Positions 4,311 through 32,000 of a stretch of DNA of 32,000 nt are shown piece after piece. Below the pieces are notes generated by a model that was given only the letters and a program-made list of their open reading frames with translations, was not told the DNA's origin and searched no databases. Location of the stretch: NCBI GenBank assembly GCA_036821825.1, contig DAISIV010000040.1:39-32038 (forward strand). Direction: 5' to 3'. Made by a program: the position numbers and the translations under genes. Each line of letters begins with the position of its first letter. The stretch's first letter is position 1. This DNA is from Deltaproteobacteria bacterium. Its GTDB lineage: Bacteria > Desulfobacterota > Desulfomonilia > Desulfomonilales > Desulfomonilaceae.

Positions 4311-5444
4311 GTGTCATCAAGCGGACCCGTTCAAAAAAAACCCGGATTTTTTGCGAAGCTCAGGATTCCCAAGAACCTGAACAAACGCAATATTATCATT
4401 TTTTCTGGTGCGATGGCACTTCTCATCGGACTTGTCGGTTATTTTGTTTATCAGTCTTCAGGGTCGAGCAGATCCAAAGCCAAGCTGAATACATCCAAAG
4501 TTGTGCGACGGGACCTCGGCGCTACAGTTCAAGCCACAGGAATAGTCAAGCCTATGGTTGGCTCTGAAGTCAAAGTGGGGGCGAGGACCCCTGGCAAGGT
4601 CATAGAATTGCCAATCAATGTTGGTCAGCAGGTCAAGGAAGGTGAGGTAATAGCGAGGCTTGAGCAGGATGACCTGGCGGCTAAAGTAAAGCTCCAGGAA
4701 GCGATCCTCGCAGAGGCCCGGGCGGAAATGGAACGGGTTGTCAAAGATATAGAACGGGAAAAGCCGCTCATCGAAAAGGGCGTTGTTTCTCAGCAAACAT
4801 TTGACAAAACGACTTCCAATTACGAAATGGCTGTTGCGCGTCATGACAAGGCCAAGGCCGAACTTTTGTATGCCAGGGCAATGCTCTCATACGCCACCAT
4901 TACAGCGCCCATAAAGGGTGTGGTAGCCTCCGTCAATACCATTCAGGGAGAAACCGTCACCACTGGCCTGAATGCCCCTACGTTCATAAAGATCATCGAT
5001 CTGGATCGCCTCGAGGTTCAGGCCTATGTCGATGAAAATGACATAGGCAAGGTCAAGGTCGGACAGGAATCTATTTTTACGGTCGCTTCACACCCGGGTG
5101 AGGATTTCAAGGGAACTGTAACTTCCATCTATCCCTCAGCCACCATACAGGACAATGTCGTCTATTACATAACAACCGTCAGCGTTGATAACTCTGAGGG
5201 GAAGCTTCGGCCCGACATGACAGCGAATGTGATCATTTTCCTGGATCAGAGGAAAGGGGCGCTTACTGTTCCAAACAGGGCGATACAGCGGGAAGGTTCT
5301 CGCAAGTTCGTTTTCCTGATGGAAAATGGCGCCATGGAGAGAAGGTACGTGAATACTGGATGGAAAGACGGTTCCTACACGGAAATTCTTGACGGCCTCA
5401 GAGAAGGCAATGTTGTGGTGGTAGGGGATATCCCCAAGAAATAG
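4311..5444 (+). CDS. HlyD/MacA-family periplasmic adaptor (membrane fusion protein) of the ABC efflux system
   Basis: 377 aa. It has an N-terminal membrane anchor (IIIFSGAMALLIGLVGYFVY) and a lipoyl-like hairpin (PGKVIELPINVGQQVKEGEVIARLE). A coiled-coil segment follows, then the second lipoyl half and beta-barrel (ITAPIKGVVASVNTIQGETV...LEVQAYVDENDIGKVKVGQ). GTG start with GAGG upstream. First gene of a 4-gene same-strand cluster. Confidence 0.85.
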   Translation: MSSSGPVQKKPGFFAKLRIPKNLNKRNIIIFSGAMALLIGLVGYFVYQSSGSSRSKAKLNTSKVVRRDLGATVQATGIVKPMVGSEVKVGARTPGKVIELPINVGQQVKEGEVIARLEQDDLAAKVKLQEAILAEARAEMERVVKDIEREKPLIEKGVVSQQTFDKTTSNYEMAVARHDKAKAELLYARAMLSYATITAPIKGVVASVNTIQGETVTTGLNAPTFIKIIDLDRLEVQAYVDENDIGKVKVGQESIFTVASHPGEDFKGTVTSIYPSATIQDNVVYYITTVSVDNSEGKLRPDMTANVIIFLDQRKGALTVPNRAIQREGSRKFVFLMENGAMERRYVNTGWKDGSYTEILDGLREGNVVVVGDIPKK

Positions 5445-5476
5445 CCTTATTGTAAGATTCTCAATGGAGTTTTAGC

Positions 5477-6175
5477 ATGATCAATGTCCAAAATCTGTCC
5501 AAAGTTTTTAACAAGGACGGGGTAGAGGTTGAAGTTCTGAAGGACATTAACCTAACGATAGAAAAGGGAGAGTTCGTCTCCATAATGGCCCCGTCCGGAA
5601 TGGGCAAGAGCACTTTTCTAAACATATTGGGCTGTCTGGACAAGCCGTCTTCCGGATCTTATACGCTGGACGGATCCCCCGTGCAGAATATGGAGGATGA
5701 CGAACTTTCCCAGGTTCGTAACAGCAAGTTGGGATATGTTTTCCAGTCATTTCACCTTCTGCCGCGTATGACAGCCTGGGAAAACGTCATACTTCCCCTG
5801 ATTTACAGCGATGATGACTCGGACATGAAAGAAAAGGCTGTTGAAGTACTTAATTCGGTAGGGCTCGGGGATCGTATCAACCATCTGCCCAGAGAACTTT
5901 CCGGGGGACAACAGCAACGCGTCGCTATTGCCAGAGCGCTTATCAACAATCCGAGAATAATTTTTGCGGACGAGCCGACAGGAAACCTGGATTCAAGTTC
6001 AAGCGCCGAAGTAATGGATATTTTTAGAACTCTCCATGCTCAGGGTAGAACACTTGTAGTGGTCACTCACGATCCTGATGTTGGGTCCCAGGCAGACCGA
6101 ATGATCGAAATGAAAGATGGCCGCATATCTTCGGATAGACCCACCAGGTCTCTTTCAGAGGAGAACGCTAAATGA
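5477..6175 (+). CDS. ABC transporter ATP-binding protein (MacB/LolD-type, stand-alone NBD)
   Basis: 232 aa. Walker A is APSGMGKST, ABC signature LSGGQQQRVAIARAL, Walker B IIFADEPTGNLD, and H-loop VVVTHD. The stop overlaps the next start (ATGA at 6172-6175), suggesting translational coupling. Confidence 0.93.
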   Translation: MINVQNLSKVFNKDGVEVEVLKDINLTIEKGEFVSIMAPSGMGKSTFLNILGCLDKPSSGSYTLDGSPVQNMEDDELSQVRNSKLGYVFQSFHLLPRMTAWENVILPLIYSDDDSDMKEKAVEVLNSVGLGDRINHLPRELSGGQQQRVAIARALINNPRIIFADEPTGNLDSSSSAEVMDIFRTLHAQGRTLVVVTHDPDVGSQADRMIEMKDGRISSDRPTRSLSEENAK

Positions 6176-7380
6176 GAATTATCAGGATGGCCTCCCAGGC
6201 GCTGCAGGCAATGAAAGACAATAAGGTTAGATCGTTTCTAATGATGCTGGGGGTCATAATAGGAGTGGCTACCCTGACGATAATAACCTCGTCTGTCATG
6301 GGGGCGCGTAGTCAGGTGATGTCGCGTGTTGAGAGGTTTGGGCTGGATCAGATAATGGTCATGGCCGGCGCAGGCCGAAAACCAGGAGTCCCCCAACCTA
6401 CCCCGACTACCCTAAAAGTAGAGGACGCCAATGCCGTCCTGTCTGAAATCTCGAACGTGAAAGATGTCACTCCTCAGATCAATCGCCGTGACATACCCAT
6501 AAAGTATCAGAACAAGAACTCCTATGCAGTAATAGTGGCGACCAACCCAAACTGGTCCGAAATATGGAACACCCAGGCAGAGAACGGTCGCTTTTTAAAC
6601 GAATCCGAGGTTGCGCGTCTCAGCAGGGTGGCTGTCATCGGACAGACCCTGGTAAATGACCTGTTTGAGGGGGAAGACCCGGTTGGTAAACAGATAAATG
6701 TTGCCAACAATCCTTTTGAGATCATTGGTGTCCTTGAAAAAAAAGGTTCATCACCGACGGGCCTGGATTTAGATTCACGCCTAATCATCCCCCTGACTAC
6801 CGGAATGAAACGTGTCTTCAATCAGGATTACATCACAAACATCAAGATTGTGGTCAATGACACCTCCCGGATGGGGGATACTGTAAATGATGTGAAAATG
6901 TTGCTTCGGGAAAGGCATAATTTGGCTCCTGGTGTAGAGGATGACTTCACCATTGTGACACCCACCCTGGTTATGGCCCTGGCTTCAAAGGTCGCTTCAA
7001 CATTCAGCATTTTTCTCATACTTGTTTCACTGGTTTCACTAGTGGTTGGAGCAGTGGTGATAGCCAACATAATGTTCATATCTGTTAATGAGAGGAAATC
7101 TGAAATAGGTATTCGAAGAGCGGTTGGAGCCACTAAAAAAGACGTATTGGCCCAATTCCTTATCGAGTCGGTTACCGTTTCCGCCTTGGGCGGTCTTATA
7201 GGGGCCGTGCTGGGCGTCATCACACTAAACCTTTTGTCCACGTTCTCCAAGATGCAATCTGGCGCTATCCTGATGCCGATAATCATTGCTATTACCTGCG
7301 CAATAATTGTGGGATTGCTGGCCGGAATCCAGCCTGCCAGAAAGGCTTCAAACCTGGACCCGATTGAAGCCCTTAAATGA
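6172..7380 (+). CDS. ABC transporter permease, MacB periplasmic-core plus FtsX domain (paralog 1)
   Basis: 402 aa. N-terminal TM helix, then a roughly 220 aa periplasmic domain. C-terminal FtsX 3-TM bundle with the conserved cytoplasmic motif ERKSEIGIRRAVGATKKDVLAQFLIES and the C-terminal PARKASNLDPIEALK. Confidence 0.9.
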   Translation: MRIIRMASQALQAMKDNKVRSFLMMLGVIIGVATLTIITSSVMGARSQVMSRVERFGLDQIMVMAGAGRKPGVPQPTPTTLKVEDANAVLSEISNVKDVTPQINRRDIPIKYQNKNSYAVIVATNPNWSEIWNTQAENGRFLNESEVARLSRVAVIGQTLVNDLFEGEDPVGKQINVANNPFEIIGVLEKKGSSPTGLDLDSRLIIPLTTGMKRVFNQDYITNIKIVVNDTSRMGDTVNDVKMLLRERHNLAPGVEDDFTIVTPTLVMALASKVASTFSIFLILVSLVSLVVGAVVIANIMFISVNERKSEIGIRRAVGATKKDVLAQFLIESVTVSALGGLIGAVLGVITLNLLSTFSKMQSGAILMPIIIAITCAIIVGLLAGIQPARKASNLDPIEALK

Positions 7381-7441
7381 ACTGGATCAGATTGACCCGG
7401 CAAGAGAATATTTTCGCACACCGTGGGGTGACATTTTATAA

Positions 7442-8665
7442 GTGATGAGGTCATTCAGAGGCATAAGTATAGCTCTCAAGTCACTGACTGCTCACAAGCT
7501 GCGCGTCGCCTTAGCCCTGCTAGCCATCATGATCGGTGTCGCCTCCGTGACTGTGATGGTCGGCATTGGCAAGGGCGCTGAGGACGAAGTTAGGCGAAAA
7601 ATCCAGGGGATGGGGACCAATCTGGTGATGGTGAGCGCTGGAATCTCCAGAAGTGTTAAGGGGCAGATTGGGCAGATTGGCCTTATGACTACTCTAACTC
7701 AGGGTGACGTTAGAACCATCCAGGAGGAGTGCCCGGACGTGGTAAGGGCTGCGCCTGCGTTTTCCAGAAAAGTTCTCGTGAAACATGAAAATATTTCATA
7801 TTCCACCAGAGTCGTGGGCTCTGTGCCCTCCTTCATGCAAATCAAGAATGTCTACATGGACCAAGGGTCCTTTTTCGACGATGATGACGTCAGACTGATG
7901 TCGACCGTCGCGGTGATAGGCCCGACCGTGGTCAGGAATCTTTTTCCGGATAAGCATCCCATAGGTGAAGGAATACGCATTGGAAAGGTGTTGTTCAAAG
8001 TCATCGGGGTAACCGCATCAAAGGGGGACTTTGGTGGTGAGGACGAAGACGATCAAATTTTCATCCCGCTTCGTACCGCAATGAATAAACTGTTCAATGT
8101 GACTTACCTTAGCCATATTTACCTGGAAGCTCGTAGCTTTGAAGAAACGTCACTGGTGCAGGCTCAGGTCAAGGCTCTACTGAGGGAACGCCATCGGTTG
8201 AGACATGATGTGGCTGACGACTTTACAATACAAAACCAGGCTGATGTTGTTGAGGCCGAAAGCTCTGTGGCCAAAACTTTCAGTCTGCTGGTTATTGCTA
8301 TAGCCTCTGTCTCGATGCTCATAGGCGGAGTGGGAATACTCGGGGTGATGCTGCTGTCGGTCAAGGAGCGGGTCTCGGAAATTGGCGTCAGAAGAGCTGT
8401 GGGCGCTCGCCGTAAAGACATATTGATTCAGTTTCTTGTGGAGTCCTCATTCCTGGGGATAATCGGAGGTCTGGCCGGAATTGCAACGGGTTTGATAGCC
8501 TCGCAGTTGTTGAAATTCCTTTCAGGAATGCCTGTGGTATTGTCGCTGAATTACATGATCGCCTCCTTGATATTTTCGGTACTGGTCGGACTGGCTTTCG
8601 GCATTTACCCGGCGTGGAAAGCCGCAGGACTGGATCCCATCCAGGCGCTTAACTCAAAGACATAA
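7442..8665 (+). CDS. ABC transporter permease, MacB periplasmic-core plus FtsX domain (paralog 2)
   Basis: 407 aa with the same architecture as the upstream gene (ERVSEIGVRRAVGARRKDILIQFLVES; PAWKAAGLDPIQAL). The start is ambiguous between GTG 7442 and ATG 7445. Confidence 0.9.
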   Translation: MMRSFRGISIALKSLTAHKLRVALALLAIMIGVASVTVMVGIGKGAEDEVRRKIQGMGTNLVMVSAGISRSVKGQIGQIGLMTTLTQGDVRTIQEECPDVVRAAPAFSRKVLVKHENISYSTRVVGSVPSFMQIKNVYMDQGSFFDDDDVRLMSTVAVIGPTVVRNLFPDKHPIGEGIRIGKVLFKVIGVTASKGDFGGEDEDDQIFIPLRTAMNKLFNVTYLSHIYLEARSFEETSLVQAQVKALLRERHRLRHDVADDFTIQNQADVVEAESSVAKTFSLLVIAIASVSMLIGGVGILGVMLLSVKERVSEIGVRRAVGARRKDILIQFLVESSFLGIIGGLAGIATGLIASQLLKFLSGMPVVLSLNYMIASLIFSVLVGLAFGIYPAWKAAGLDPIQALNSKT

Positions 8666-8666
8666 A

Positions 8667-9428
8667 TCAGGTGAGCCTTTCAAGGATCCAGAGACCTAAC
8701 TCTCTGAAGTCAAATCTGCTTTCACCTTCAAGATCCCTGGCTTGATTCTCCCGGTATACGATTCCAAACTGCCTGTCCATATTAACTTCATTATTCCTAC
8801 AGTAATTGGTGAGAGATGTCTTTGTCATGCTGCCAACCAGGCATGCGCCGACCGAGGATCCCCAGGCAAAATGAGGCCCGTCCCCTCCGCTGTCACCAAT
8901 AATCACAACCTTTGCAGCGGTTAAGCCCAATTTTTTCATGACTGAGTCAGTGTTTGAAGCCTTGTCTGAGGTTTCCAGGACTTGATACTGAAACCTGGGA
9001 TCTGTTTCGACACCCGCAAATTTTATGAACGGGTTGGAAGCCACTATTGGGGCCGGCGGAATGAGTTTGCGATCTATGATCCTCTGAAAGAAACCCTGAG
9101 CGCCTGTTGTGTTTATCATGAACAATATGTTTTTTGAAGCCAGCATCTCTATCATTTCGACGACACCGTTATAAATAGCGAAAGACGCGTCCAGATATGA
9201 GTCCATCTGTTCCGGGGAAAACGGTTTGGGAAGAATCCCGTTTATCTGTGAGACAGCCAGCGACAGAGGAATCTCATTTGATGTGTAACTCTTGAAAATC
9301 CTGTCGAGTTCTTTCTTGAGTTCCGGGTACAGGTAAGCTACCGGGTCAAATGGACCAGTAGGCGCCAGGCATTCATTCCAGTCTGAAGATACCAAACCAA
9401 TGTATTTCATTGTTCTATCCAAATCCAT
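8667..9428 (-). CDS. HAD-superfamily-like hydrolase-fold protein (function unknown)
   Basis: 253 aa. AAGGAG lies 7 nt upstream of the ATG at 9428. HAD-like motif order: motif I-like IGLVSSDWNECL, motif II FMINTTG, a Lys region, and motif IV VVIIGDSGGDG. Motif I is not canonical DxDxT. The call is by motif pattern only. Confidence 0.5.
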   Translation of the reverse strand: MDLDRTMKYIGLVSSDWNECLAPTGPFDPVAYLYPELKKELDRIFKSYTSNEIPLSLAVSQINGILPKPFSPEQMDSYLDASFAIYNGVVEMIEMLASKNILFMINTTGAQGFFQRIIDRKLIPPAPIVASNPFIKFAGVETDPRFQYQVLETSDKASNTDSVMKKLGLTAAKVVIIGDSGGDGPHFAWGSSVGACLVGSMTKTSLTNYCRNNEVNMDRQFGIVYRENQARDLEGESRFDFRELGLWILERLT

Positions 9429-9786: not shown

Positions 9787-9943
9787 GGGTCAGGCAATCG
9801 GATTGCTTTATAATTCACGATGCTGTAATGTTAATGAATCTAGGTGAATACACCTTTCTTCGTTTCGGTCTTACCTGATAACAGAATTTTCTTTGTGATT
9901 CTATAAGTTGGTCAAACCCATCAAATCTGAGGAGCTTGAAACA

Positions 9944-12532
9944 ATGGATTTTATCGAACGGCTCAAGGAAATCGTAGGCCCCAGGAACATCACTGTTTCA
10001 CCGGTAGATTGTCTGGCTTATTCGAGAGACATGTCGATCCATTCTGGAACACCGCAAGCGGTTCTGTTTGTTAGTAACACCGAACAGGTCAGCCAGATAG
10101 TCAAGTTGGCCAATGAAAACAAGATTCCCGTAACAGCTAGAGGGACCGGCTCTTCAGTGACCGGGGCAGTTCTGCCAATCAAAGGCGGTTTGATACTGGA
10201 TTTCACCAGGATGAATTCTGTTCTTGAAATAAACAAGGCTGACTCTTATGCGGTTGTGGAGCCTGGTGTAATCTGCAACGCGTTGAACGCCAAGCTCGCT
10301 CCCTCCCATTTCTTTCCACCTGACCCGGGGAGCGCTGCAATAGCCACCATCGGAGGAATGATTTCAACTAATGCCAGTGGAGTAAGAGCCGCAAAATACG
10401 GAACAACCAAAAATTATGTAAAAGGACTGACCGTGGTAATGGCGGATGGTCGAATCATCAAGACCGGAGATATTGCGCCCAAGAGCACTGCAGGTTACGA
10501 CCTTACACAGTTGTTTGCCAGTTCCGAAGGCACACTGGGAATCATCACCGAGGCCACGGTAAGGATTCTCCCCATGCCCGAATATGAGGCCTTTGCAAAA
10601 GCCTCTTTCCCCGATGTCGATACAGCCGGAAAGGCTGTCGAGAAAATGTTCACGTCAGGCCTTGAACTGGCGACATGTGAAATACTGGACAACGCATGCA
10701 TACAGGTGGCCAGGGAAGCTCTGAAAATGGATATCCCGCCCGAAGTCAACTGCCAGTTGTTCATGGGGATAGACGGCCCAAAAGCCGCAGTCCAGGAACA
10801 GATAGAAAAAATCAATGAGATATGCAAATCAGTCGGTGGTATAGAAAACATCTGGTCCGACAATCCGGTCGAGAAGGCCCAGTTGTTTGCGGCACGCGGT
10901 GGACTTGTACCAGCCATGAGCCGCCTCCAACCACATCACAGGCTTGTCCCGCTTGTTGAAGATTTTGGCGTTCCAATAAGCCGAATACCTGAAACAATAG
11001 CTGAGATTCAGAAAATCGGTGACAAATATGGCTTCCCGGTGGCCACATTCGGGCATATCGGGGACGGAAACCTGCACGCCACCTTTATCATGAACCCAAC
11101 CCTGCCGGAACACTGGGAAAAAGTTAAGAATATCGCGCTCGAATTCATCGACATGACATTGCGTCTTGGAGGGACTGTTTCCGCCGAACATGGTGTTGGA
11201 ATGGCTAAAGCTCCTTACATCGGGAGACAACTCGGGGAATCTCTCAATGTCATGACGCAGATAAAGAAGGCCTTGGATCCAAACAATATTTTAAACCCGG
11301 GAAAAATGGGTTTCGAAGATTCAATCACTGATATTCTGGATGAAAACAGTTTCATTAACTATCTGAAACATCCTGATAAAATACAACACTTCAGCGAAGA
11401 AGTTGATAATGAGATACTCGCCTGCATTCAGTGTGGCTTCTGTCGGGCCGGGTGTCCTACTTTTGGAGAAACATCTCTGGAATCGCTTAACGCAAAGGGC
11501 AGGGTCACCCTTGCGTTCAATATGCTCTCAGGCAACGTGGAACCGTCCGAAGACCTTGCCAAAAGACTCTATCAGTGCATGTTGTGCCTAAACTGCAAAT
11601 TTGTCTGTCCGGCGAAAGTGAATGTTTCAGACATCATCAGAAGCGCTAGGCAAAGGTTGGTTGAGCATGGTTTCCTTCCGGAATCCTTCAAACCTGCCTT
11701 GACCTCGATGCTTGAGGCAGCCAACCCCTTGCTGGCTCCTCCAGAAAAGAGAGCTGACAGCTTCCCGGCCAATTTCAAAAAAGCCATTCCAGGAGAGACA
11801 GAAGCAATCGTTCATGTGGGTTGCGTGACAGGTTTTCAGGATGTCAAAATAATTCCGTCAATGATCGACATAATGGAGAAAACAGGCATCAAATATGGAG
11901 CGCTAGCAGAGGAAGAAACCTGCTGTGGTTATTTGGCCTACCTGGTAGGCGACATGGACACTTTCAACAAAACCATGAAAACCTATGAAGAGAAACTGGC
12001 CGCATACAAGCCGAAGAGCCTCATAACCTCTTGCGCAGGCTGCCTGAAGACTTTTAGAGACCTCTATCCCCATTACGGAGCTTCTAATGGCTATGTGGTG
12101 TCGCATATCGTAGAACTTCTGGATAAGCTTGCACAGGAAAACAAACTGAAGTTCAAGGAGGACGCCCAACCTGTGAAGGTGATTTATCATGATCCTTGTG
12201 ATATGGGACGTCACATGGGTGTTTACGAACCGCCTCGAAATGTTCTTAAGGCCATCCCCGGGGTTGAACTCCTGGAATTCCCGATGAATCGGAACCTGGC
12301 GAAATGTTGTGGTGGTGGCGGTGGCATGAAGGGTTTCGACAACGAAATGGCTTCCGATATAGGTTTCAAGAGGCTTCTCTCAGCGATTGAGCTGGGGGCT
12401 GAAATCCTCGTATCCGCATGCCCGTCATGCAAAGGGTCTTTCAATCAGGCGGCCGCCCGCGCCCGTAAAGAGAAAAAAGGCAAGATCAAGGTAATGGATA
12501 TCACGGAACTGGTTTCCAGCCGATTGGCCTAG
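9944..12532 (+). CDS. FAD-linked oxidase (GlcD/D-lactate dehydrogenase-like) fused to a 4Fe-4S dicluster plus double CCG (GlcF/HdrD-like) domain
   Basis: N-terminal FAD_binding_4-type region (PVTARGTGSSVTGAVLP, GGMISTNASGVRAAKYG) and a FAD-oxidase C-terminal domain (SAEHGVGMAKAPY). Two ferredoxin motifs follow: CIQCGFCRAGCP and CMLCLNCKFVCP. There are two CCG-type cysteine motifs (EETCCGY, AKCCGGGGG...CPSC). The track starts at TTG 9908. I prefer ATG 9944 (MDFIERLKEIVG) because GAGGAG sits 9 nt upstream. Confidence 0.88.
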   Translation: MDFIERLKEIVGPRNITVSPVDCLAYSRDMSIHSGTPQAVLFVSNTEQVSQIVKLANENKIPVTARGTGSSVTGAVLPIKGGLILDFTRMNSVLEINKADSYAVVEPGVICNALNAKLAPSHFFPPDPGSAAIATIGGMISTNASGVRAAKYGTTKNYVKGLTVVMADGRIIKTGDIAPKSTAGYDLTQLFASSEGTLGIITEATVRILPMPEYEAFAKASFPDVDTAGKAVEKMFTSGLELATCEILDNACIQVAREALKMDIPPEVNCQLFMGIDGPKAAVQEQIEKINEICKSVGGIENIWSDNPVEKAQLFAARGGLVPAMSRLQPHHRLVPLVEDFGVPISRIPETIAEIQKIGDKYGFPVATFGHIGDGNLHATFIMNPTLPEHWEKVKNIALEFIDMTLRLGGTVSAEHGVGMAKAPYIGRQLGESLNVMTQIKKALDPNNILNPGKMGFEDSITDILDENSFINYLKHPDKIQHFSEEVDNEILACIQCGFCRAGCPTFGETSLESLNAKGRVTLAFNMLSGNVEPSEDLAKRLYQCMLCLNCKFVCPAKVNVSDIIRSARQRLVEHGFLPESFKPALTSMLEAANPLLAPPEKRADSFPANFKKAIPGETEAIVHVGCVTGFQDVKIIPSMIDIMEKTGIKYGALAEEETCCGYLAYLVGDMDTFNKTMKTYEEKLAAYKPKSLITSCAGCLKTFRDLYPHYGASNGYVVSHIVELLDKLAQENKLKFKEDAQPVKVIYHDPCDMGRHMGVYEPPRNVLKAIPGVELLEFPMNRNLAKCCGGGGGMKGFDNEMASDIGFKRLLSAIELGAEILVSACPSCKGSFNQAAARARKEKKGKIKVMDITELVSSRLA

Positions 12533-12594: not shown

Positions 12595-13785
12595 TTACTC
12601 AAACCTCATGGCCTCGGCCGCATCCAGTCTGCTGGCCTTTCTGGCAGGTAGATAGCCTGAGCTTATACCTAGAATAAATCCAAAAATGACCCCTCCTACC
12701 ACACTGATCATAAACATCAAGTATGACGGTGTGGTGGCGAGGACGATCTTGAGAATCTGGACGGACACGGTCCCGACTATTATCCCTAGCAGGGCGCCTA
12801 CCAGACTTAAGGTTACCGCTTCTACGAGGAACTGATTCATGATCATGTCCTCGGTTGCGCCAACAGCCTTCCTGAGGCCTATCTCCTTGGTCCTTTCCCG
12901 CACAGCAGCCAGCATGACGTTTGTTATGCCGAGCCCTCCAAGTATAACGATTACGATGAGCGCCGCGTATAAAAAGAGCTTTACGATCAACACAGCATGC
13001 TTGATTGTCCTGATCCGTTCAGAAAAAACCCTGATCTCCATGGCTTCACTGTAACCGGGCTGATTCCTGACCAGAATTTCATGAACCTTGTGTTGCAAAT
13101 CGTCAATGACATCCCAGTTGATGGCCCGCACATAGATGTCCTTTATTTCGTACATCCCGGGAAAACGAGAACGTGCAACGGATAAGGGAATCAGTATGCT
13201 CTCCATGAACGAGGCGTCTTCAACCCCACCTATGATTCCCACTATCCTAAAATAGTGCCCACCTATAAATATCTGTTTGTTCAAAGGGTCAGGATCATCC
13301 CCCATCAAAAGCCTGATCACGGTTGAGCCGACAACACAAACATTATTTTTCCATGCCACATCGTCGTCCGTTATTCGGCGGCCTTCAGCAACCGGAATAT
13401 GAATAGTGTCAAAAAATTTCTCGTCTACCCCCAGCAGGCGGGCAGGCATTTTTTTCAGGTTGTAGCTGACCTCGTAACCACTAAATACCGCCGGCGAGAC
13501 ATGCCTGACTCCCGGTAGCTTCTGAAGATCCTCTATGTCCTTGTGGAAATATTGGCCGCCGTGCTTCTTGGGACTCTTGCTGTAATCAAAGTAGGCCTTG
13601 ATGATTGTTGCGCTTCCCAACAATTCCAGATTGTTGCCCAAATCAGATTCAACTGCTCCTCCCATGGTAAGGATGATTATGATCCCGGCGATCCCAAGGG
13701 AAATTCCTATCAAAACGCTCTTGTACCTTCTTTTGTTCCGGTATATCTGTCTTAAGGCTATCGTCGCCAAATCTGCAGTTTGCAT
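12595..13785 (-). CDS. ABC transporter permease, MacB/FtsX family (orphan, no adjacent ATPase)
   Basis: 396 aa with the same architecture as 6172-7380 and 7442-8665. Motifs: ERTKEIGLRKAVGATEDMIMNQFLVEA; C-terminal PARKASRLDAAEAMRFE. It lies 176 nt downstream of mutS on the same strand. Confidence 0.88.
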   Translation of the reverse strand: MQTADLATIALRQIYRNKRRYKSVLIGISLGIAGIIIILTMGGAVESDLGNNLELLGSATIIKAYFDYSKSPKKHGGQYFHKDIEDLQKLPGVRHVSPAVFSGYEVSYNLKKMPARLLGVDEKFFDTIHIPVAEGRRITDDDVAWKNNVCVVGSTVIRLLMGDDPDPLNKQIFIGGHYFRIVGIIGGVEDASFMESILIPLSVARSRFPGMYEIKDIYVRAINWDVIDDLQHKVHEILVRNQPGYSEAMEIRVFSERIRTIKHAVLIVKLFLYAALIVIVILGGLGITNVMLAAVRERTKEIGLRKAVGATEDMIMNQFLVEAVTLSLVGALLGIIVGTVSVQILKIVLATTPSYLMFMISVVGGVIFGFILGISSGYLPARKASRLDAAEAMRFE

Positions 13786-25748: not shown

Positions 25749-26165
25749 TTGAAACGATTTCTGATAGCATGGCTCCTGTTTGTCTTGTGCCATGCAAACG
25801 CCGATGGTTCGGGTGGTATTACACCTGAGCAGATTTATCAAACCAATCTCGACTGGCAGACAGTCATTGGCAGTTGGGAGAAACTTCCCGAAGAAAATCC
25901 CCTGGCCGAAAAACCCAACGGTTTTAAGGACCCTTCGTTCCGATCTTTGATCACCCTGAGGAAGGATGGGACCTGTAGAATTTTCAATGAAGCTTACCCC
26001 TCCGGAATCGATGGTGTTTGGTCTTACGATGACCACAGTATTTCAGTCACGCTGCCCAACAAGGTCAAGATCAATATGTACGTCTATGGGGTGAGGGGCG
26101 ATTTTATGATCACTCGTACCCCCGAAAAAAATGGTGTGGACCAGCTATGGTCGCGCGTCAAGTAA
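25749..26165 (+). CDS. Hypothetical secreted protein
   Basis: 138 aa with TTG start. Convincing signal peptide MKRFLIAWLLFVLCHANA, then a beta-rich-looking mature domain (DGTCRIFNEAYPSGIDGVWSYDDHSISVTL...MYVYGVRGDFMITR). I prefer it over the overlapping minus-strand ORF 25572-26036, whose translation looks non-protein-like. Confidence 0.55.
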   Translation: MKRFLIAWLLFVLCHANADGSGGITPEQIYQTNLDWQTVIGSWEKLPEENPLAEKPNGFKDPSFRSLITLRKDGTCRIFNEAYPSGIDGVWSYDDHSISVTLPNKVKINMYVYGVRGDFMITRTPEKNGVDQLWSRVK

Positions 26166-26473: not shown

Positions 26474-27862
26474 GTGAGCGCTTTACACCAAAGTGCAATT
26501 AATTGCAAAAGAAGCGTTGTTCTGGGGTTTCTCAGGCCAGGCATCCTGTCTCGCCCGGTGTCGCCCCTGCTAATATTGGTGACGCTGCTATCCCTGGTGT
26601 TCCTCAGTTCCAACTCCTTAGCCAATACCGGATCACAGCCCAATGATCCCTTCGGCTATTTTGATTTCCCGACATGCGTAAGATATGCGTTCGTACATTC
26701 AGAATCGCTGTTATCGAACAAACTTGATATTCAGGTTGCATCCATAGACCTCAAGGACGCTCATTCTGAATTGATGCCAACTTTCCAGTTGGTGACCCGC
26801 TACTACTTCATCAGGACGGACGACGCAAACAATCCGAATCCCTCAAAGTTTAACGTTCAGTTCCAGATGACAAACTGGAATCCTTATGAAGCGCTGATCA
26901 AGATCAGGGCAAAATCGATTTTTGTGGATTTGGCGAAACTGGCCCACTTTGACAAGATCTCCGAGAATGTCGCTCAGATGGCCAAGCTCTTTTACAGCGT
27001 CAACACACTGCAGTCGACGATTCGTGGACAAAAACAGATTCTGGCTATTCACAACAATAAGGTGAACTTCGGAAAGAGCAAATTTGATCAAGGCAATACC
27101 GATTCCTTCACCCTCCAGTCATGGACCAATTCGCTGAAGGCTCAACAACTCAAGGTCAAAAGTCTGGAGAGGGAACTGGATCAGAAGATATCGCTTCTGA
27201 AATCCCTTATGGGTTATCACCCCGATTATCACCTACCCTTGGATACCAGAGACGCGGCCAACCAGATATTGAACGGCTTCAACGGTCGCTGGATGACGTT
27301 TGCCGACATTCAGGGCCGAAACATCAAACTGAAAATGGCTGCCAAAAAGGAGCAGGCCCAGTCGGTTATGGTCACGGGCGCCTATTTGCAACTCGTGCCC
27401 AAACCTTTGTTCGTTTTCACGGATAACAAGAACACACCCAACACGACCTCAGGTGTTAACATGGCCCTCGGTTTGGATTACATCCTGTGGGACGGCTTCA
27501 AAAGGGTGAGGGATATATCCAGACAGAAATTCAAAGCCCAGCAGCTTGAAATAGACAGAAAGCAACTTTCCGAGAAACTTTACAGTGATTTCAAGAAAAT
27601 CCGTGGTGAGATCGAATCAACCGGTGAACAGTCATCTCTCTCTCGTGAACAGGCTAAACTAGCGGACCTTGCGGAAGAGAAAGCGGCTATTCTGTATAAG
27701 TCCGGAACCATGGATTACGGCGAATATTCAGATCAGAGAATAAAGACGGTCGAGGCTCATCTGAATGTTGCCAACGACCTGCAAAACAGGGTTTTTGAAC
27801 TTATTGATCTGGCTACCATGGCAGGAGGTTTAAACAAGTACAATGCCGCAATTCGATACTGA
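26474..27862 (+). CDS. TolC-family outer membrane efflux protein
   Basis: 462 aa. N-terminal hydrophobic signal region (LLILVTLLSLVFLSSNSLA). OEP-type start of the first repeat: FPTCVRYAFVHSESLLSNKLDIQVASIDLKDAHSELMPTFQLVTRY. A second repeat has long predicted helices, and the sequence ends in an aromatic residue. The GTG start is uncertain. Confidence 0.78.
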   Translation: MSALHQSAINCKRSVVLGFLRPGILSRPVSPLLILVTLLSLVFLSSNSLANTGSQPNDPFGYFDFPTCVRYAFVHSESLLSNKLDIQVASIDLKDAHSELMPTFQLVTRYYFIRTDDANNPNPSKFNVQFQMTNWNPYEALIKIRAKSIFVDLAKLAHFDKISENVAQMAKLFYSVNTLQSTIRGQKQILAIHNNKVNFGKSKFDQGNTDSFTLQSWTNSLKAQQLKVKSLERELDQKISLLKSLMGYHPDYHLPLDTRDAANQILNGFNGRWMTFADIQGRNIKLKMAAKKEQAQSVMVTGAYLQLVPKPLFVFTDNKNTPNTTSGVNMALGLDYILWDGFKRVRDISRQKFKAQQLEIDRKQLSEKLYSDFKKIRGEIESTGEQSSLSREQAKLADLAEEKAAILYKSGTMDYGEYSDQRIKTVEAHLNVANDLQNRVFELIDLATMAGGLNKYNAAIRY

Positions 27863-28940
27863 CAAGCCCAAACCAAGGGCCAAAGCCTATGGTGTGCTTC
27901 TGGCCAGTATAGTGGCGGTAGCCTCTCTGGTTTTATTGGTGGTGACGCAGGAACCCAAGAAGGCAGTATCCAGCCCTGTGCCCGCCAAGGCCGCCATCGT
28001 GCCGCAAATCGCCGACGCCAAGTCTGAGGCTGAGATAATTTTCAGAGGCAAGAGTTTTTCGGATCTACAGAGAAGAATTGTGCTTCCTTACGGAGGCGAG
28101 ATCATTAGCATAGACGCCAAGGAAGGTCAGCCGGTTACCCAGGATGCCGTCCTGGTCAAATACAAGCTCGATCGCCAGTCCATGATGCAGGTCCACCAGA
28201 TACTTTTCCCGTCGCAGGTAATCAGTCTCAAGAACGCTTTGTACGATCAACAGATCAACCTCGAAAAACTCGTCAAGGTCTCATTGCCGGTTAAACAAAT
28301 GGCCCTTGAGAGATCTGAACAGGAACTTGCGGATATTAGGTCCCTTCAATCCAAAGGGCTCGCTGAGGCAGAGGGAGTTACGAACAAGGAACGCGAGACT
28401 GACAGCTCCCGCAAGCAGGTGCTTGAGGTTCAGAAAACCATAAAACAGGCCGAAGACGGCATTCGAAAGACTGAGGAAGACCTCAAATTCATGGAAAACA
28501 AGCAAAAGCGGGATTTGGATCTGCTTGAATATCAGACCAAGCGTGTTTACAATAATTCCGATTTGCCCCTGGACGTAGCTTTCATATCTGCGCCAATCAA
28601 TGGTCAGGTGATCTGGCTTTCTCCGGAATTGAGGGTCAATAGTGAACTCAATGCTGGCTCTCCTGTTTTAACCGTGGCCACCACCCATCCAATGATCGTT
28701 AGATGCAAGGTTCACGAACTGGATTTGGTTAAACTCAAAACAGGGGACCGCGGATCTGTAACATTTGACGCCATTCCGGAAAAGAGATTCCCTTGTAAGG
28801 TTAGTCGGATTCCTTGGGTCAGCAGAAACCCGGCGCTTGAATCGCCTGCGGATTATGAGATAGAGTGTCTGCTCGACAACATGGAAGGGCGCATCAAGGA
28901 CGGCCTTACCTGTAATGTCAAGATTAGCGTGACTCAGTAG
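27843..28940 (+). CDS. HlyD-family periplasmic adaptor (membrane fusion protein)
   Basis: 365 aa. N-terminal TM anchor AYGVLLASIVAVASLVLLVV and lipoyl-like half GGEIISIDAKEGQPVTQDAVLVKY. A long charged coiled-coil (ERSEQELADIRSLQSKG...KTEEDLKFMENKQKRDL) is followed by ISAPINGQVIWLSPELRVNSELNAGSPVLTV and a beta-barrel (KLKTGDRGSVTFDAIPEKRFPCKVSRI). The start overlaps the TolC-like stop by 20 nt. Confidence 0.8.
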   Translation: MPQFDTDKPKPRAKAYGVLLASIVAVASLVLLVVTQEPKKAVSSPVPAKAAIVPQIADAKSEAEIIFRGKSFSDLQRRIVLPYGGEIISIDAKEGQPVTQDAVLVKYKLDRQSMMQVHQILFPSQVISLKNALYDQQINLEKLVKVSLPVKQMALERSEQELADIRSLQSKGLAEAEGVTNKERETDSSRKQVLEVQKTIKQAEDGIRKTEEDLKFMENKQKRDLDLLEYQTKRVYNNSDLPLDVAFISAPINGQVIWLSPELRVNSELNAGSPVLTVATTHPMIVRCKVHELDLVKLKTGDRGSVTFDAIPEKRFPCKVSRIPWVSRNPALESPADYEIECLLDNMEGRIKDGLTCNVKISVTQ

Positions 28941-29033
28941 GCTGACGACTGATTTTCCATATGGCATCGATAAGATGCCTTTATCCCTGTTTCATGGGGT
29001 AGTTCATCAAGAACAGGGGCGTAGGAAAAAGTA

Positions 29034-30194
29034 TTGTTGATTTTTGCCTTACTCATTATAACGACCGTCCTGGTCGTTTTTTTGTTGATTTTTGGCCTTT
29101 TGCGACTGTATCTGGCGGGTAGGGTTCGTCCTGAATCGGAATCCGGTCAGTCCATGCCGCTAATACAGGTTCTGGTACCCATAAAGGGTTGTTCGGAACA
29201 ACAGGAAACTGTTCTCTCATCTTTGCTGCAACAGGATTACCCATCTTACAAGGTCAGCTTCATCATTGAGGATGAGACTGACGGTTCCAGTGAATTGCTT
29301 CATAAACTGTCACGGCAATACGATCATGCCGAGGTTTTGATTTCTGGCCGGACAGAGTTGTGTGGGCAGAAGAATCATGGTTTATCCTACGCGTCAGGAA
29401 GGCTTCATCAGGACGTAGGGATCCTGGTGACCTGTGACGGCAACAGCATCGCCCAGCGAGACTGGCTCACGTCTTTGAGTCGACCTATCAGGAATGGAAG
29501 GGCCCTGGCAGTTACTACATTTCGAACATTCAATCCGCGGCCTGTCTCGGTTGCAGGTGTTTGTCAGGCAATTTACGGTTCGATGCTATCACTTCTGATA
29601 GCAATTGAACCAAAGCCCTGGGGCGGGTCTACAGCCATTAAGCGGCAATTGTTCGATCTTCTGGATGTGAGGTCTTACTGGAGTCGAACCGTAGTGGATG
29701 ACCTTGTCATGGGGAACCTGCTGATGCAGGCTGGTATTAGACCTTTCTTTTCACCTGTTAGCGTCATGGAAACACCTTTGGCCTCCCAGACTTTTGAAGG
29801 GTTTCTCTCTTTCTTGCATCGGCAGATACTTTTCCCGAAATTCACTAATCCCGGTCTTTGGCTTCTGTCAATGGTCGGACAATATTTATTGGCTTCTGCG
29901 ACGGCAGTGGCCCTGCTAGTGTTTTTGTCATCGCTCCTGACTTTTTCCTTTGGGTTAGAGTCATTTGCGGCGTTTATTTGTCTCGTCACCCTGACCGGAG
30001 CTTTTGTTGTTCTTCACCAAATCAGTCCTCACAGGATTTCCCTTTTCTACTGGCTGGTTTCCGTCCTTCCTTTCATTGCCCTGGCTACATATGTCTATGT
30101 CCGGTCATTATTCGTTAATTACATCGATTGGAGTGGTAAGCGTTATTACTGTGGTCGTCTAGGGGTGGTAACAAAATTTGAATCCCTGCCATAA
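29034..30194 (+). CDS. Membrane glycosyltransferase, GT2/GT21-like (ceramide glucosyltransferase/HpnI-like)
   Basis: 386 aa. N-terminal TM helix, then IQVLVPIKGCSEQQETVLSSLLQQDYPSYKVSFIIEDETDGS, GQKNHGLSYASG...ILVTCDGNS, WGGSTAIKRQLF and VVDDLVMGNLL. Three to four TM helices sit at the C-terminus. TTG start. Confidence 0.75.
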   Translation: MLIFALLIITTVLVVFLLIFGLLRLYLAGRVRPESESGQSMPLIQVLVPIKGCSEQQETVLSSLLQQDYPSYKVSFIIEDETDGSSELLHKLSRQYDHAEVLISGRTELCGQKNHGLSYASGRLHQDVGILVTCDGNSIAQRDWLTSLSRPIRNGRALAVTTFRTFNPRPVSVAGVCQAIYGSMLSLLIAIEPKPWGGSTAIKRQLFDLLDVRSYWSRTVVDDLVMGNLLMQAGIRPFFSPVSVMETPLASQTFEGFLSFLHRQILFPKFTNPGLWLLSMVGQYLLASATAVALLVFLSSLLTFSFGLESFAAFICLVTLTGAFVVLHQISPHRISLFYWLVSVLPFIALATYVYVRSLFVNYIDWSGKRYYCGRLGVVTKFESLP

Positions 30195-30251: not shown

Positions 30252-32000
30252 ATGAAAATTCGATTGGCCAGGACAGCCGGATTTTGCATGGGGGTCAGGC
30301 GGGCAGTGGAGATGGCGCTTGATCTTCAGAGAGAAGCGCAGGTTCAACCAATCGTCACCTATGGTCCACTTATCCATAATCCCCAGACCCTGAAGTTACT
30401 GGCCTCAAAGGGAATCTGTCAGGTCAATTCTATTGAGGAAATTCAGGGAGGAACTGTCATAATAAGGGCTCATGGAATATCTCCCCAGGAAAAGGAGCTG
30501 CTAGAGTCAAAGGGAGTTTCAATTATTGACGCCACCTGTCCGAGGGTTTCCCAGGTTCAGGCATTTATTCGCAAGCATGCGGGTATGGGCCATTTTTGCG
30601 TGATTGTTGGGGACGAGGATCATCCGGAAGTTATGGGGCTCAGGGGCTTTGCATCAGCCGGATCTTTGGTGATTTCAGGTCCCGAAATGTCGGACCTCAT
30701 CAATTCCGTTCCTCTTGACAGAACAGTTTGCGTGGTAGCTCAAACCACCCAGGAACCCAGAACTCTCCAGGCTGTAGTGGGAGCGCTCGAATCGGTGGGC
30801 GCAAAAATCAAGGTTTACAACACTATTTGTGATTCTACCAGGAAGAGACAGGCTGAAGTAGAGCAATTGGCCTTAGAGGCCGATATGGTCATAGTTGTTG
30901 GCGGAAAGGGATCTGGAAACACTCAGCGTTTAGCAAAGGTGGCCTCGGATCGCGGGAAGCCGGTGATGCATATTGAAACCGACGAGGAGTTCAGTTCCTT
31001 GGACCTGGAAGGGCTGGAAACAGTCGGCGTTACCGCTGGCGCCAGCACACCCAACTGGCAGATAAGGCAGGTCATAGAGAAATTAAAGCACATAGACATG
31101 GCTAGTCGTGGGGACTGGCTGTCACGGCTCAGAAGGTACGGGGACATCTCCGTCATGATATACGGCTGGGCGGCCCTGGCAGGGGCGGGTTTAACGGTTG
31201 CCTCCCAGACCCTTTTGTCTGAACCTTTGACCTGGATGTCTCCTGCTGTTTCTGCGCTGTTTGTATTCTCAATGCATCTGCTAAATCGATTACAGGAACG
31301 AACCGGCGCTGTCCGATTCAATACTCCCGAGATCGCGTCGTTCTACATAAGACATGAGGTTGCCCTGACCATCATCGGGTCTATTTCGGGCCTCATGGCC
31401 ATTGCGCTGTGTTTCAGTGTAAGCTTTGTATCAGGAATGACCCTAACCTTGATGACCGTAACAGGATTGCTCTATTCGCTGCCCGCAGCGAGGCTCCTAA
31501 GGTTCCCATTTACACACTGGCGCTCACTAAAAGACCTGCCCGGGGCAAAAACACCGCTGGTTGCTACCGGCTGGGCCATGGTAGCAGTTGTTGTTCCTCT
31601 ACTAGACTTCGATTATCACCCGGGAATTTTAAGCCTCCTGGTCACCTTCTCCTTTGCTTTTGGACTTGTCTTCTGGAGAACAGCCTTGTCTGACCTTCTT
31701 GACATACAGGGTGACCGAATAGTCGGGAGAGAGACCATACCCATCCTGCTCGGAGTCGAGAATACGAGAAAACTCCTGAACCGGATTCTCTTATTGTTAG
31801 GGCTCCTGCTACTGTTGTCGGGACTTACCGGCCTAACCTCGGCTGTTTCCTTTTGTCTGATGCTCAGCCTTGCATACAATTATGCCCTCTTCAGGATTCT
31901 TCTGAAAAAGAATCTTGTGGACAGGCTGTTCCTTGAGGCGGTCACTGATATCAATTTTATTTTTGCCGGTTTTCTTTCGGTAGCTTACATGTTATGGTGA
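30252..32000 (+). CDS. ispH: 4-hydroxy-3-methylbut-2-enyl diphosphate reductase (IspH/LytB) fused to a C-terminal UbiA-like polytopic membrane domain
   Basis: The IspH part (about 30252-31090) begins MKIRLARTAGFCMGVRRAV (Cys1) and continues IIDATCPRVSQV (Cys2), VGDEDHPEVMG and YNTICDSTRKRQ (Cys3), then VVGGKGSGNTQRL and GASTPNW. The C-terminal part (about 31110-31997) has 8-9 predicted TM helices. It carries a UbiA-type second Asp-rich motif DLLDIQGDRIVGRETIPILLG (31692-31715 onward) and LKDLPGAKTPLVATGWA. The track starts at TTG 30216. I prefer ATG 30252 by comparison with usual IspH N-termini. The stop codon is the last 3 nt of the window. Confidence 0.85.
   Translation: MKIRLARTAGFCMGVRRAVEMALDLQREAQVQPIVTYGPLIHNPQTLKLLASKGICQVNSIEEIQGGTVIIRAHGISPQEKELLESKGVSIIDATCPRVSQVQAFIRKHAGMGHFCVIVGDEDHPEVMGLRGFASAGSLVISGPEMSDLINSVPLDRTVCVVAQTTQEPRTLQAVVGALESVGAKIKVYNTICDSTRKRQAEVEQLALEADMVIVVGGKGSGNTQRLAKVASDRGKPVMHIETDEEFSSLDLEGLETVGVTAGASTPNWQIRQVIEKLKHIDMASRGDWLSRLRRYGDISVMIYGWAALAGAGLTVASQTLLSEPLTWMSPAVSALFVFSMHLLNRLQERTGAVRFNTPEIASFYIRHEVALTIIGSISGLMAIALCFSVSFVSGMTLTLMTVTGLLYSLPAARLLRFPFTHWRSLKDLPGAKTPLVATGWAMVAVVVPLLDFDYHPGILSLLVTFSFAFGLVFWRTALSDLLDIQGDRIVGRETIPILLGVENTRKLLNRILLLLGLLLLLSGLTGLTSAVSFCLMLSLAYNYALFRILLKKNLVDRLFLEAVTDINFIFAGFLSVAYMLW

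Follow-up and report, generated by a model that had tools for sequence, protein, structure and literature searches.

IspH is an essential enzyme and a drug target, the last in the bacterial pathway to isoprenoid precursors. The window described here, the whole stretch of 32,000 nucleotides that was analysed (contig DAISIV010000040.1, from a member of the Desulfomonilaceae), ends with a gene in which an IspH domain runs on into a membrane domain resembling the UbiA prenyltransferases, and the locus raises the question of whether this fusion is genuine and what a membrane prenyltransferase fold with an altered first Asp-rich motif might do beside IspH. The fusion is real and conserved in hundreds of assemblies, confirming the observation made in an earlier reading of this DNA (the original prediction), and the gene adds a Desulfomonilaceae representative to the IspH-UbiA fusion family, which had already been described. 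The encoded protein is probably an active IspH anchored in the membrane and coupled to a divergent, still functional transferase that would bind prenyl diphosphates.

A Single Reading Frame Joins IspH to a Membrane Domain

The frame at 30252-32000 (plus strand) translates as 582 codons with no interruption, and its stop codon supplies the last three letters of the window. Translation could also begin at an upstream TTG (30216), but homologues begin MKIRLA, and ATG 30252 is therefore taken as the start. The gene and its parts are arranged as follows.

30252-32000, plus strand: IspH-UbiA fusion gene, 582 amino acids and a stop codon, a single open reading frame (ORF) with at least 120 full-length homologues of ~580 amino acids
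30252-31103, plus strand: IspH/LytB domain, residues 1-284, a [4Fe-4S] 4-hydroxy-3-methylbut-2-enyl diphosphate (HMBPP) reductase domain by Pfam LYTB, TIGR00216 and Foldseek
31104-31157, plus strand: linker, residues 285-302, in which the last IspH helix ends and one more helix leads into transmembrane helix (TM) 1 in the AlphaFold2 (AF2) model
31158-31997, plus strand: UbiA-superfamily intramembrane domain, residues 303-582, by PF01040, AF2, Foldseek and the ratio of nonsynonymous to synonymous substitution rates (dN/dS)

The translation agrees with the original prediction that one ORF passes from IspH into the membrane domain without a stop. That prediction also carried the worry that a sequencing or assembly frameshift at the domain junction had joined two adjacent genes, and the conservation of the fusion across many independent assemblies refutes it. 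A search of a 5.8-billion-protein collection, in which the number of full-length matches is a lower bound, returns at least 120 full-length homologues (53-100% identity, ~570-590 amino acids), all carrying PF02401 and PF01040, from the complete 6.5-Mb genome of Desulfomonile tiedjei and from many Desulfomonilaceae metagenome-assembled genomes (MAGs). The window protein is 60% identical to that of D. tiedjei, and the genomes closest to the window are Desulfomonilaceae/Desulfomonile MAGs together with D. tiedjei. The frame is continuous in all of these independent homologues, drawn from many assemblies and one finished genome, and in 77 further cluster representatives, while the linker is conserved and is modelled confidently by AF2 as two helices (residues 268-286 and 289-302). 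An artefactual joining of neighbouring genes can on this evidence be dismissed with near certainty. The fusion gene is split into two or three ORFs in the loci of three nanopore MAGs (L046, L047 and L053, around 8000-8900, and also L053, 9499-10693), and these splits are sequencing frameshifts rather than natural ones because tuf is split in the same loci.

The membrane domain is seldom found by itself. An exhaustive HMMER search with a profile of the C-terminal domain only, run against 1.84 billion cluster representatives (clusters at 50% identity), gives 163 clusters at E≤1e-30, and most of the best 150 of these 163 are 560-600 amino acids long. The short matches begin within the IspH C terminus ("VTAGASTPNW...", "VVGGK.S.NT..."), which marks them as fragments or as genes whose starts were wrongly called. 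One or two C-terminal domains at most look truly stand-alone, so that members of this UbiA subfamily occur, in essence, only as IspH fusions. The C-terminal domain used by itself in a word-indexed search brings back 26 proteins, mostly fragments, and is uninformative on stand-alone relatives. The phyletic distribution, proposed at the outset as a check, shows that the fusion recurs, mainly in anaerobic sulfate-reducing lineages: it is found in Desulfomonilaceae, Syntrophobacteria and single MAGs of Planctomycetota, BRC1 and Nitrospirota.

The IspH Half Is Complete

The N-terminal domain matches Pfam LYTB (PF02401) over residues 3-279 with an E value of 7e-85 and scores 276.9 bits against TIGR00216 (cutoff 187.85), residues 2-280 covering profile positions 1-281 of 282. 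The hallmarks picked out originally are all present, with the three cluster cysteines in GFCMGV (C12), ATCPRV (C96) and TICDST (C193), the HPE motif (H124/E126) and SGN (S221/N223). Conservation was assessed over 91 aligned fusion proteins, 14 from a Desulfomonilaceae-like clade and 77 others, to which all residue counts below refer. Of the cysteines, C96 and C193 never vary and C12 is kept in at least 90% of the sequences, while H42, H74, H124, E126, T166, S221, N223 and S265 vary little or not at all; the substrate-binding and proton-relay residues of Escherichia coli IspH are H41, H74, H124, E126, T167, S225, N227 and S269. Foldseek superposes the AF2 model on Aquifex IspH (3DNF) at 40% identity with a TMt of 0.84 and on E. 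coli IspH (3KE8) with a TMt of 0.83, showing the trefoil α/β fold. The dN/dS of the IspH domain is 0.03-0.10 in unsaturated pairs; most pairs that contain the window protein are saturated at synonymous sites, and four closer pairs among its relatives were used. To judge from these features the IspH half is complete, normal and constrained, with all cluster and catalytic residues kept, and the fused IspH is most likely active as an HMBPP reductase.

Some bacteria carry two ispH/lytB copies, and the 32-kb window does not show the rest of the genome, where a separate stand-alone housekeeping ispH would leave the fused enzyme as a specialised paralogue for a secondary pathway. Such a specialisation is quite unlikely for a domain that passes the TIGR00216 equivalog cutoff, with IspH catalytic residues that are all invariant and the low dN/dS given above, and for a gene that sits in a housekeeping region, between ftsH or a MocA-like gene and the tRNA-tuf-nusG-rplKAJL-rpoB cluster in Desulfomonilaceae. 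The housekeeping setting fits a fusion that would be the working IspH of the organism.

Fold and Constraint of the Membrane Half

The C-terminal domain matches the Pfam UbiA family (PF01040) at 38.7 bits against a gathering score of 34.2, with residues 308-552 aligned to profile positions 5-235 of 250. The AF2 model, with a pLDDT of 94.1 and a pTM of 0.91 overall, contains nine TM helices where eight or nine hydrophobic helices had been counted originally.

Residues 305-321, 329-348, 369-390, 392-407, 433-450, 459-483, 502-526, 532-552 and 558-581: the nine TM helices (AF2)

Short helices are placed in the TM2-3 and TM6-7 loops, like those of UbiA structures. The membrane domain is matched by Foldseek with a probability of 1.0 to AfUbiA (4TQ3/4TQ4), ApUbiA (4OD4/4OD5), the digeranylgeranylglyceryl phosphate synthase MjDGGGPS (7BPU/6M31), UBIAD1 and the Rv3806c-type phosphoribosyltransferase (PRTase), and 8DJK, also at a probability of 1.0, and 8J8J are among the structures matched. 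The above-threshold Pfam match and the predicted structure both bear out the UbiA-like fold that had been proposed. A Protein Data Bank (PDB) sequence search with an 8-sequence family profile gives no match, and a 41-sequence profile reaches only MjDGGGPS (E 1.9e-4); the profile of motif 2 can in addition be aligned with motif 1 of that enzyme, a reflection of the internal repeat in the superfamily fold, which consists of two pseudo-symmetric four-helix bundles. The best NCBIfam neighbours are archaeal DGGGPS-type models for 36-38 of the 41 members, followed by ChlG and MenA, with all scores far below the cutoffs. By these scores the membrane domain is placed as a distinct UbiA subfamily, nearest the DGGGPS/ChlG branch and a member of none of those families. 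Its dN/dS is 0.05-0.09, and both halves of the protein are under strong purifying selection, the membrane domain being as constrained as IspH.

The First Asp-rich Motif Is Non-canonical and Conserved

At the position of the canonical NDxxDxxxD motif the window protein reads NRLQERTGA (N345-A353, 31284-31310), just as the original prediction stated, and the canonical form is absent. The region was mapped with hhalign by aligning the family profile with MjDGGGPS (probability 86%, E 5e-6), which places HLLNRLQERT(G)AVRFNTPEI over NVINDIFDIE-IDRINKPSR of the archaeal enzyme.

31284-31334, plus strand: non-canonical first motif, N345-R-L-Q-E349-R-T-G352-A-V354-R355-F-N357-T-P359-E-I361, from hhalign against MjDGGGPS and the 91-sequence counts
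N345: position N1, Asn in 85/91
R346: position D2, Asp in 0/91
E349: position D5, acidic in 66/91 (Asp in 46, Glu in 20)
V354: position D9, acidic in 20/91
R355, N357 and P359: R..N.P segment just after the motif

The motif is homologous to NDxxDxxxDxxNxPxR, with N1 kept, D5 present as Glu, and D2 and D9 lost. Because D2 is never Asp and D9 is acidic in so few members, the non-canonical form characterises the IspH-UbiA family as a whole, whose first motif is, from the alignment, best written as a putative N-x-x-x-[D/E] site rather than a second DXXXD. In the AfUbiA structure the direct Mg2+ ligands are N68 and D72 in motif 1 with D198 and D202 in motif 2, D76 is not among them, and the N68A and D72A substitutions abolish geranyl diphosphate (GPP) binding (Huang et al. 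2014, PMC4106721). N345 and E349 of the window protein correspond to the two direct motif-1 ligands, N68 (N1) and D72 (D5). The original view that the diphosphate/Mg aspartates are largely missing was right in that the segment departs from NDxxDxxxD through the loss of D2 and D9, and overstated in that N1 and an acidic D5 are kept.

The Desulfomonilaceae-like clade has its own version of the site. A one-residue insertion (G352), R355 and Ile at 361 each occur in 14/14 members, position 361 being Arg or Lys in 61/77 of the non-clade proteins, and position 349 has changed from Asp to Glu in 10/14. The resulting clade motif HLLNR..[ED]..GAvRFNtPeI is nearly invariant, and because of this and of the domain dN/dS of 0.05-0.09 the first motif is a conserved alternative site and not a decaying one, so that the description "degenerate" given to it originally does not hold.

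The Second Motif and Further Polar Residues

Two other regions of the membrane domain carry the remaining conserved polar residues.

31677-31754, plus strand: R476 and the second Asp-rich motif, D481-x-x-D484-x-x-x-D488-R-I-V-G492-R-E-T495-I-P497...G501
31473-31574, plus strand: Y408 at the end of TM4, with the L4-5 loop and the start of TM5, L426-K427-D428-x-P430-G-x-K433...W441

The second motif, DLLDIQGDRIVGRETIPILLG (D481-G501, 31692-31754), is canonical, and the K...K...W loop, LKDLPGAKTPLVATGW, spans L426-W441 (31527-31574); both stand as originally described. D484-I-Q-G-D488 is a DxxxD that aligns to D-M-E-G-D of MjDGGGPS, and hhalign maps D481, D484 and D488 onto motif 2 of that enzyme, KDFEDMEGDKKEG. 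Conservation is high at R476 (89/91), D488 (90/91) and G492 (90/91), with D481 kept in 75/91 and D484 in 72/91. In the loop region Y408 is found in 89/91, P430 in 84/91, W441 in 88/91, K433 in 85/91 (with Arg in 6 more) and K427 in 56/91. We infer that the Y408/K433 region is equivalent to AfUbiA Y139/K146. Candidate counterparts of AfUbiA Y139, K146 and R22, compared by sequence alone, are a conserved Tyr and basic residues (Y408, K433, K427 and R476).

Proposed Function

In the arrangement that we favour, IspH would lie on the cytoplasmic face of the membrane, held there by its link to TM1, and both Asp-motif loops (L2-3 and L6-7) would be cytoplasmic as in AfUbiA and the solved UbiA structures, where a nine-helix domain that starts N-in would place them. 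At the membrane, IspH would reduce HMBPP to isopentenyl diphosphate and dimethylallyl diphosphate (IPP/DMAPP). The C-terminal domain would bind a prenyl diphosphate via Mg2+ through N345 and E349 of motif 1 and D484/D488 of motif 2, with Y408, K433 and R476 assisting, and would transfer the prenyl group to an acceptor.

Several points weigh against an active transferase of this kind. The first motif is without D2 in 91/91 sequences and has an acidic D9 in 20/91 only, position 349 is non-acidic in 25/91, and in the clade Ile at 361 (14/14) replaces the Arg that follows the motif elsewhere (Arg or Lys in 61/77). UbiA enzymes do not usually take a C5 compound such as the IspH product as donor, which makes direct substrate channelling conjectural. 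No partner gene is conserved across the family, in 55 related loci and four distant members, to indicate the acceptor. Expression of a full-length IspH-UbiA failed (PMC4746011).

The same departures at the first motif could mark a UbiA-like domain that is a non-catalytic pseudo-prenyltransferase, whose task would be to hold IspH at the membrane, for instance beside an electron donor located there, or to bind a prenyl-diphosphate end product and so regulate IspH as a sensor; this reading we regard as possible and rather doubtful. In its favour the canonical NDxxDxxxD is found in 0/91 members, the clade adds the G352 insertion and the change from Arg to Ile at 361 to the loss of D2 and D9 and the variable position 349, and no acceptor-pathway genes are conserved near the fusion gene; a sensor or localisation role was also raised by Rao et al. 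(PMC4746011). A pure anchor, however, would need no near-invariant polar residues at the Mg2+-diphosphate positions of the solved UbiA structures, where N345, Y408, K433, R476, D488, G492 and T495 are kept; nine helices make a costly anchor, and the dN/dS of the UbiA domain is as low as that of the IspH domain. Ligand sensing would be compatible with the conserved pocket, and sequence alone does not separate catalysis from binding.

A more speculative proposal, and an unlikely one, is that the protein is a self-contained membrane machine by which anaerobes make a novel lipid or cofactor of isoprenoid type, its reduced-motif UbiA domain taking DMAPP from its own IspH, or even HMBPP, directly as donor, or else a product-sensing regulator of the last step of the methylerythritol phosphate (MEP) pathway. 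The machine would in this respect be unlike ordinary UbiA enzymes, whose donors are long chains. On this proposal the G352 insertion, the change from Asp to Glu at 349, the change from Arg to Ile at 361 and the invariant R355 would mark an altered diphosphate site.

The joining of IspH to a membrane prenyltransferase fold is conserved and nearly obligate, which implies that the two are functionally linked. New here are a further Desulfomonilaceae member, from a clade with the cultured relative D. tiedjei, a corrected description of the active site, in which N-x-x-x-[D/E] is family-wide and the Mg2+-ligand positions of the solved UbiA structures are kept, and evidence of equal selective constraint on the membrane and IspH domains. 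The known picture is unchanged by these results, and the residues for mutation and a suitable organism are better defined.

Genomic Context

The fusion gene is preceded by a gene for a membrane glycosyltransferase.

29034-30194, plus strand: membrane glycosyltransferase of family 2 (GT2), Pfam Glycos_transf_2, 57 bp upstream of the fusion gene

The GT2 protein aligns over its full length with TIGR03472 (HpnI, the hopanoid glucosamine (GlcN) glycosyltransferase) at 61 bits, far below the cutoff of 310. It is present in 38/55 related loci and is a conserved neighbour in Desulfomonilaceae. A block comprising a TolC-like protein (OEP), an HlyD-like protein and the multi-TM GT2 lies upstream of the fusion gene at 26474-30194 of the window and is kept in 32-38 of the 55 related loci. 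A lipid-glycosylation or export link between this block and the fusion protein is conceivable, though unsupported. The gene order in Desulfomonilaceae is TolC-like, HlyD-like, membrane GT2, (FtsH), (MocA-like nucleotidyltransferase), IspH-UbiA, tRNA-Thr/Tyr/Gly/Thr, tuf, tRNA-Trp, nusG, rplKAJL and rpoB, and the window represents the order variant without ftsH and the MocA-like gene.

The contigs of the closest relatives (L002, L003, L005 and L007) break ~75-650 bp past the fusion gene, and the window ends at its stop. In more distant Desulfomonilaceae (L008, L009, L017 and L022, 8950-11030) the tRNA/tuf/nusG/rplKAJL/rpoB run follows the fusion gene, and the assembly breaks are likely due to the repeated tRNA/tuf sequence.

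In the four distant members the neighbours differ, being a second UbiA resembling decaprenylphosphoryl-ribose (DPPR) synthase, an overlapping GT2, kdsB/lpt genes, and parAB. With no family-wide partner, the context therefore identifies no acceptor and no pathway claim is made. In one distant family member (locus L055, 9874-10743, and likewise L056, 7878-8747) a second, canonical UbiA-family gene lies 100 bp downstream of IspH-UbiA and scores above the NF008977 (decaprenyl-phosphate phosphoribosyltransferase) cutoff, at 253.9 against 234 bits. In a further distant locus (L058, 9788-10714) a soluble-type GT2 has a 13-bp overlap with the 3' end of IspH-UbiA, a hint of translational coupling. Genes of the GT2 family thus turn up beside the fusion in unrelated lineages, although their subfamilies differ.

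Other genes of the window, away from the fusion gene, are the following.

4311-8665: MacAB-type efflux set of an HlyD-like adaptor, an ATP-binding cassette (ABC) ATPase and two MacB/FtsX permeases, distinct from the TolC/HlyD pair adjoining the fusion gene
9908-12532: 874-amino acid protein with FAD_binding_4, FAD-oxidase_C, 4Fe-4S dicluster and two CCG domains, GlcD/heterodisulfide-reductase-like
12595-13785, opposite strand: third MacB-like permease
17361-18422: 353-amino acid protein with a partial match only to CdhD, the delta subunit of CO dehydrogenase/acetyl-CoA synthase
18804-19907, minus strand: sulfotransferase-family gene
24745-25287 and 25572-26036, minus strand: two ORFs with no Pfam match

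Comparison with Known Systems

The window protein shares with IspH-RpsA (IspH-RPS1, NF000907) an N-terminal IspH in a bifunctional protein of anaerobes, and differs from it in that the C-terminal partner is a membrane domain and not a set of S1 repeats. Identity with IspH-RpsA was rejected on a score of 294 bits against the NF000907 cutoff of 624, with residues 1-284 aligned to profile positions 1-281 of 671, the IspH part only.

The membrane domain resembles MjDGGGPS (6M31/7BPU; PRK12872/PRK12882) in its second motif, DxxDxxxD-G-x-x-[ST]-x-P, whereas its first motif is reduced, and there is no evidence of a geranylgeranylglyceryl phosphate (GGGP) synthase or of archaeal-type lipid genes nearby. 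Identity as a DGGGP synthase was rejected (NF009512/NF009521) at 27-29 bits against a cutoff of 278 and 19-21 bits against 296; across the DGGGPS-type models the scores are ~20-40 bits for cutoffs of 278-296.

With AfUbiA (4TQ3/4TQ4) and ApUbiA (4OD4/4OD5) the domain shares the nine-TM fold (Foldseek probability 1.0, TMt 0.64-0.70), the motif-1 Asn and central acidic residue, the motif-2 DxxxD and, putatively, a conserved Tyr and Lys. It differs from them in having only 14-15% identity, in lacking D2 and D9 of motif 1, in a ~20-residue insertion between Y408 and the K427/K433 loop, and in the fusion to IspH.

The closest known system is the set of IspH-UbiA 'Rosetta stone' fusions described from sequence by Rao, O'Dowd, Li, Wang and Oldfield (2015, Chem Sci 6:6813; PMC4746011), so that the fusion, which the original prediction did not recognise as characterised, had been published. 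A literature search for a characterisation later than that paper found none. The 2015 set comprises 47 sequences, mainly from sulfate-reducing Desulfobacterales, and its UbiA part is the CDD subgroup PT_UbiA_5, of unassigned function; membrane localisation with a local supply of IPP/DMAPP was already proposed there, a sensor role was also raised, and two DXXXD repeats were stated to be present (PMC4746011). In the window clade the first repeat is instead N-x-x-x-E without a second acidic residue, and by the residue counts given above the two-DXXXD statement is true of only a minority of family members. The window protein also comes from Desulfomonilaceae, unlike the mainly Desulfobacterales set. 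In other respects the two agree: both have an N-terminal IspH and a C-terminal UbiA-like domain of ~9 TM helices in ~580 amino acids, and both belong to anaerobic sulfate-reducing or dehalogenating 'Deltaproteobacteria'.

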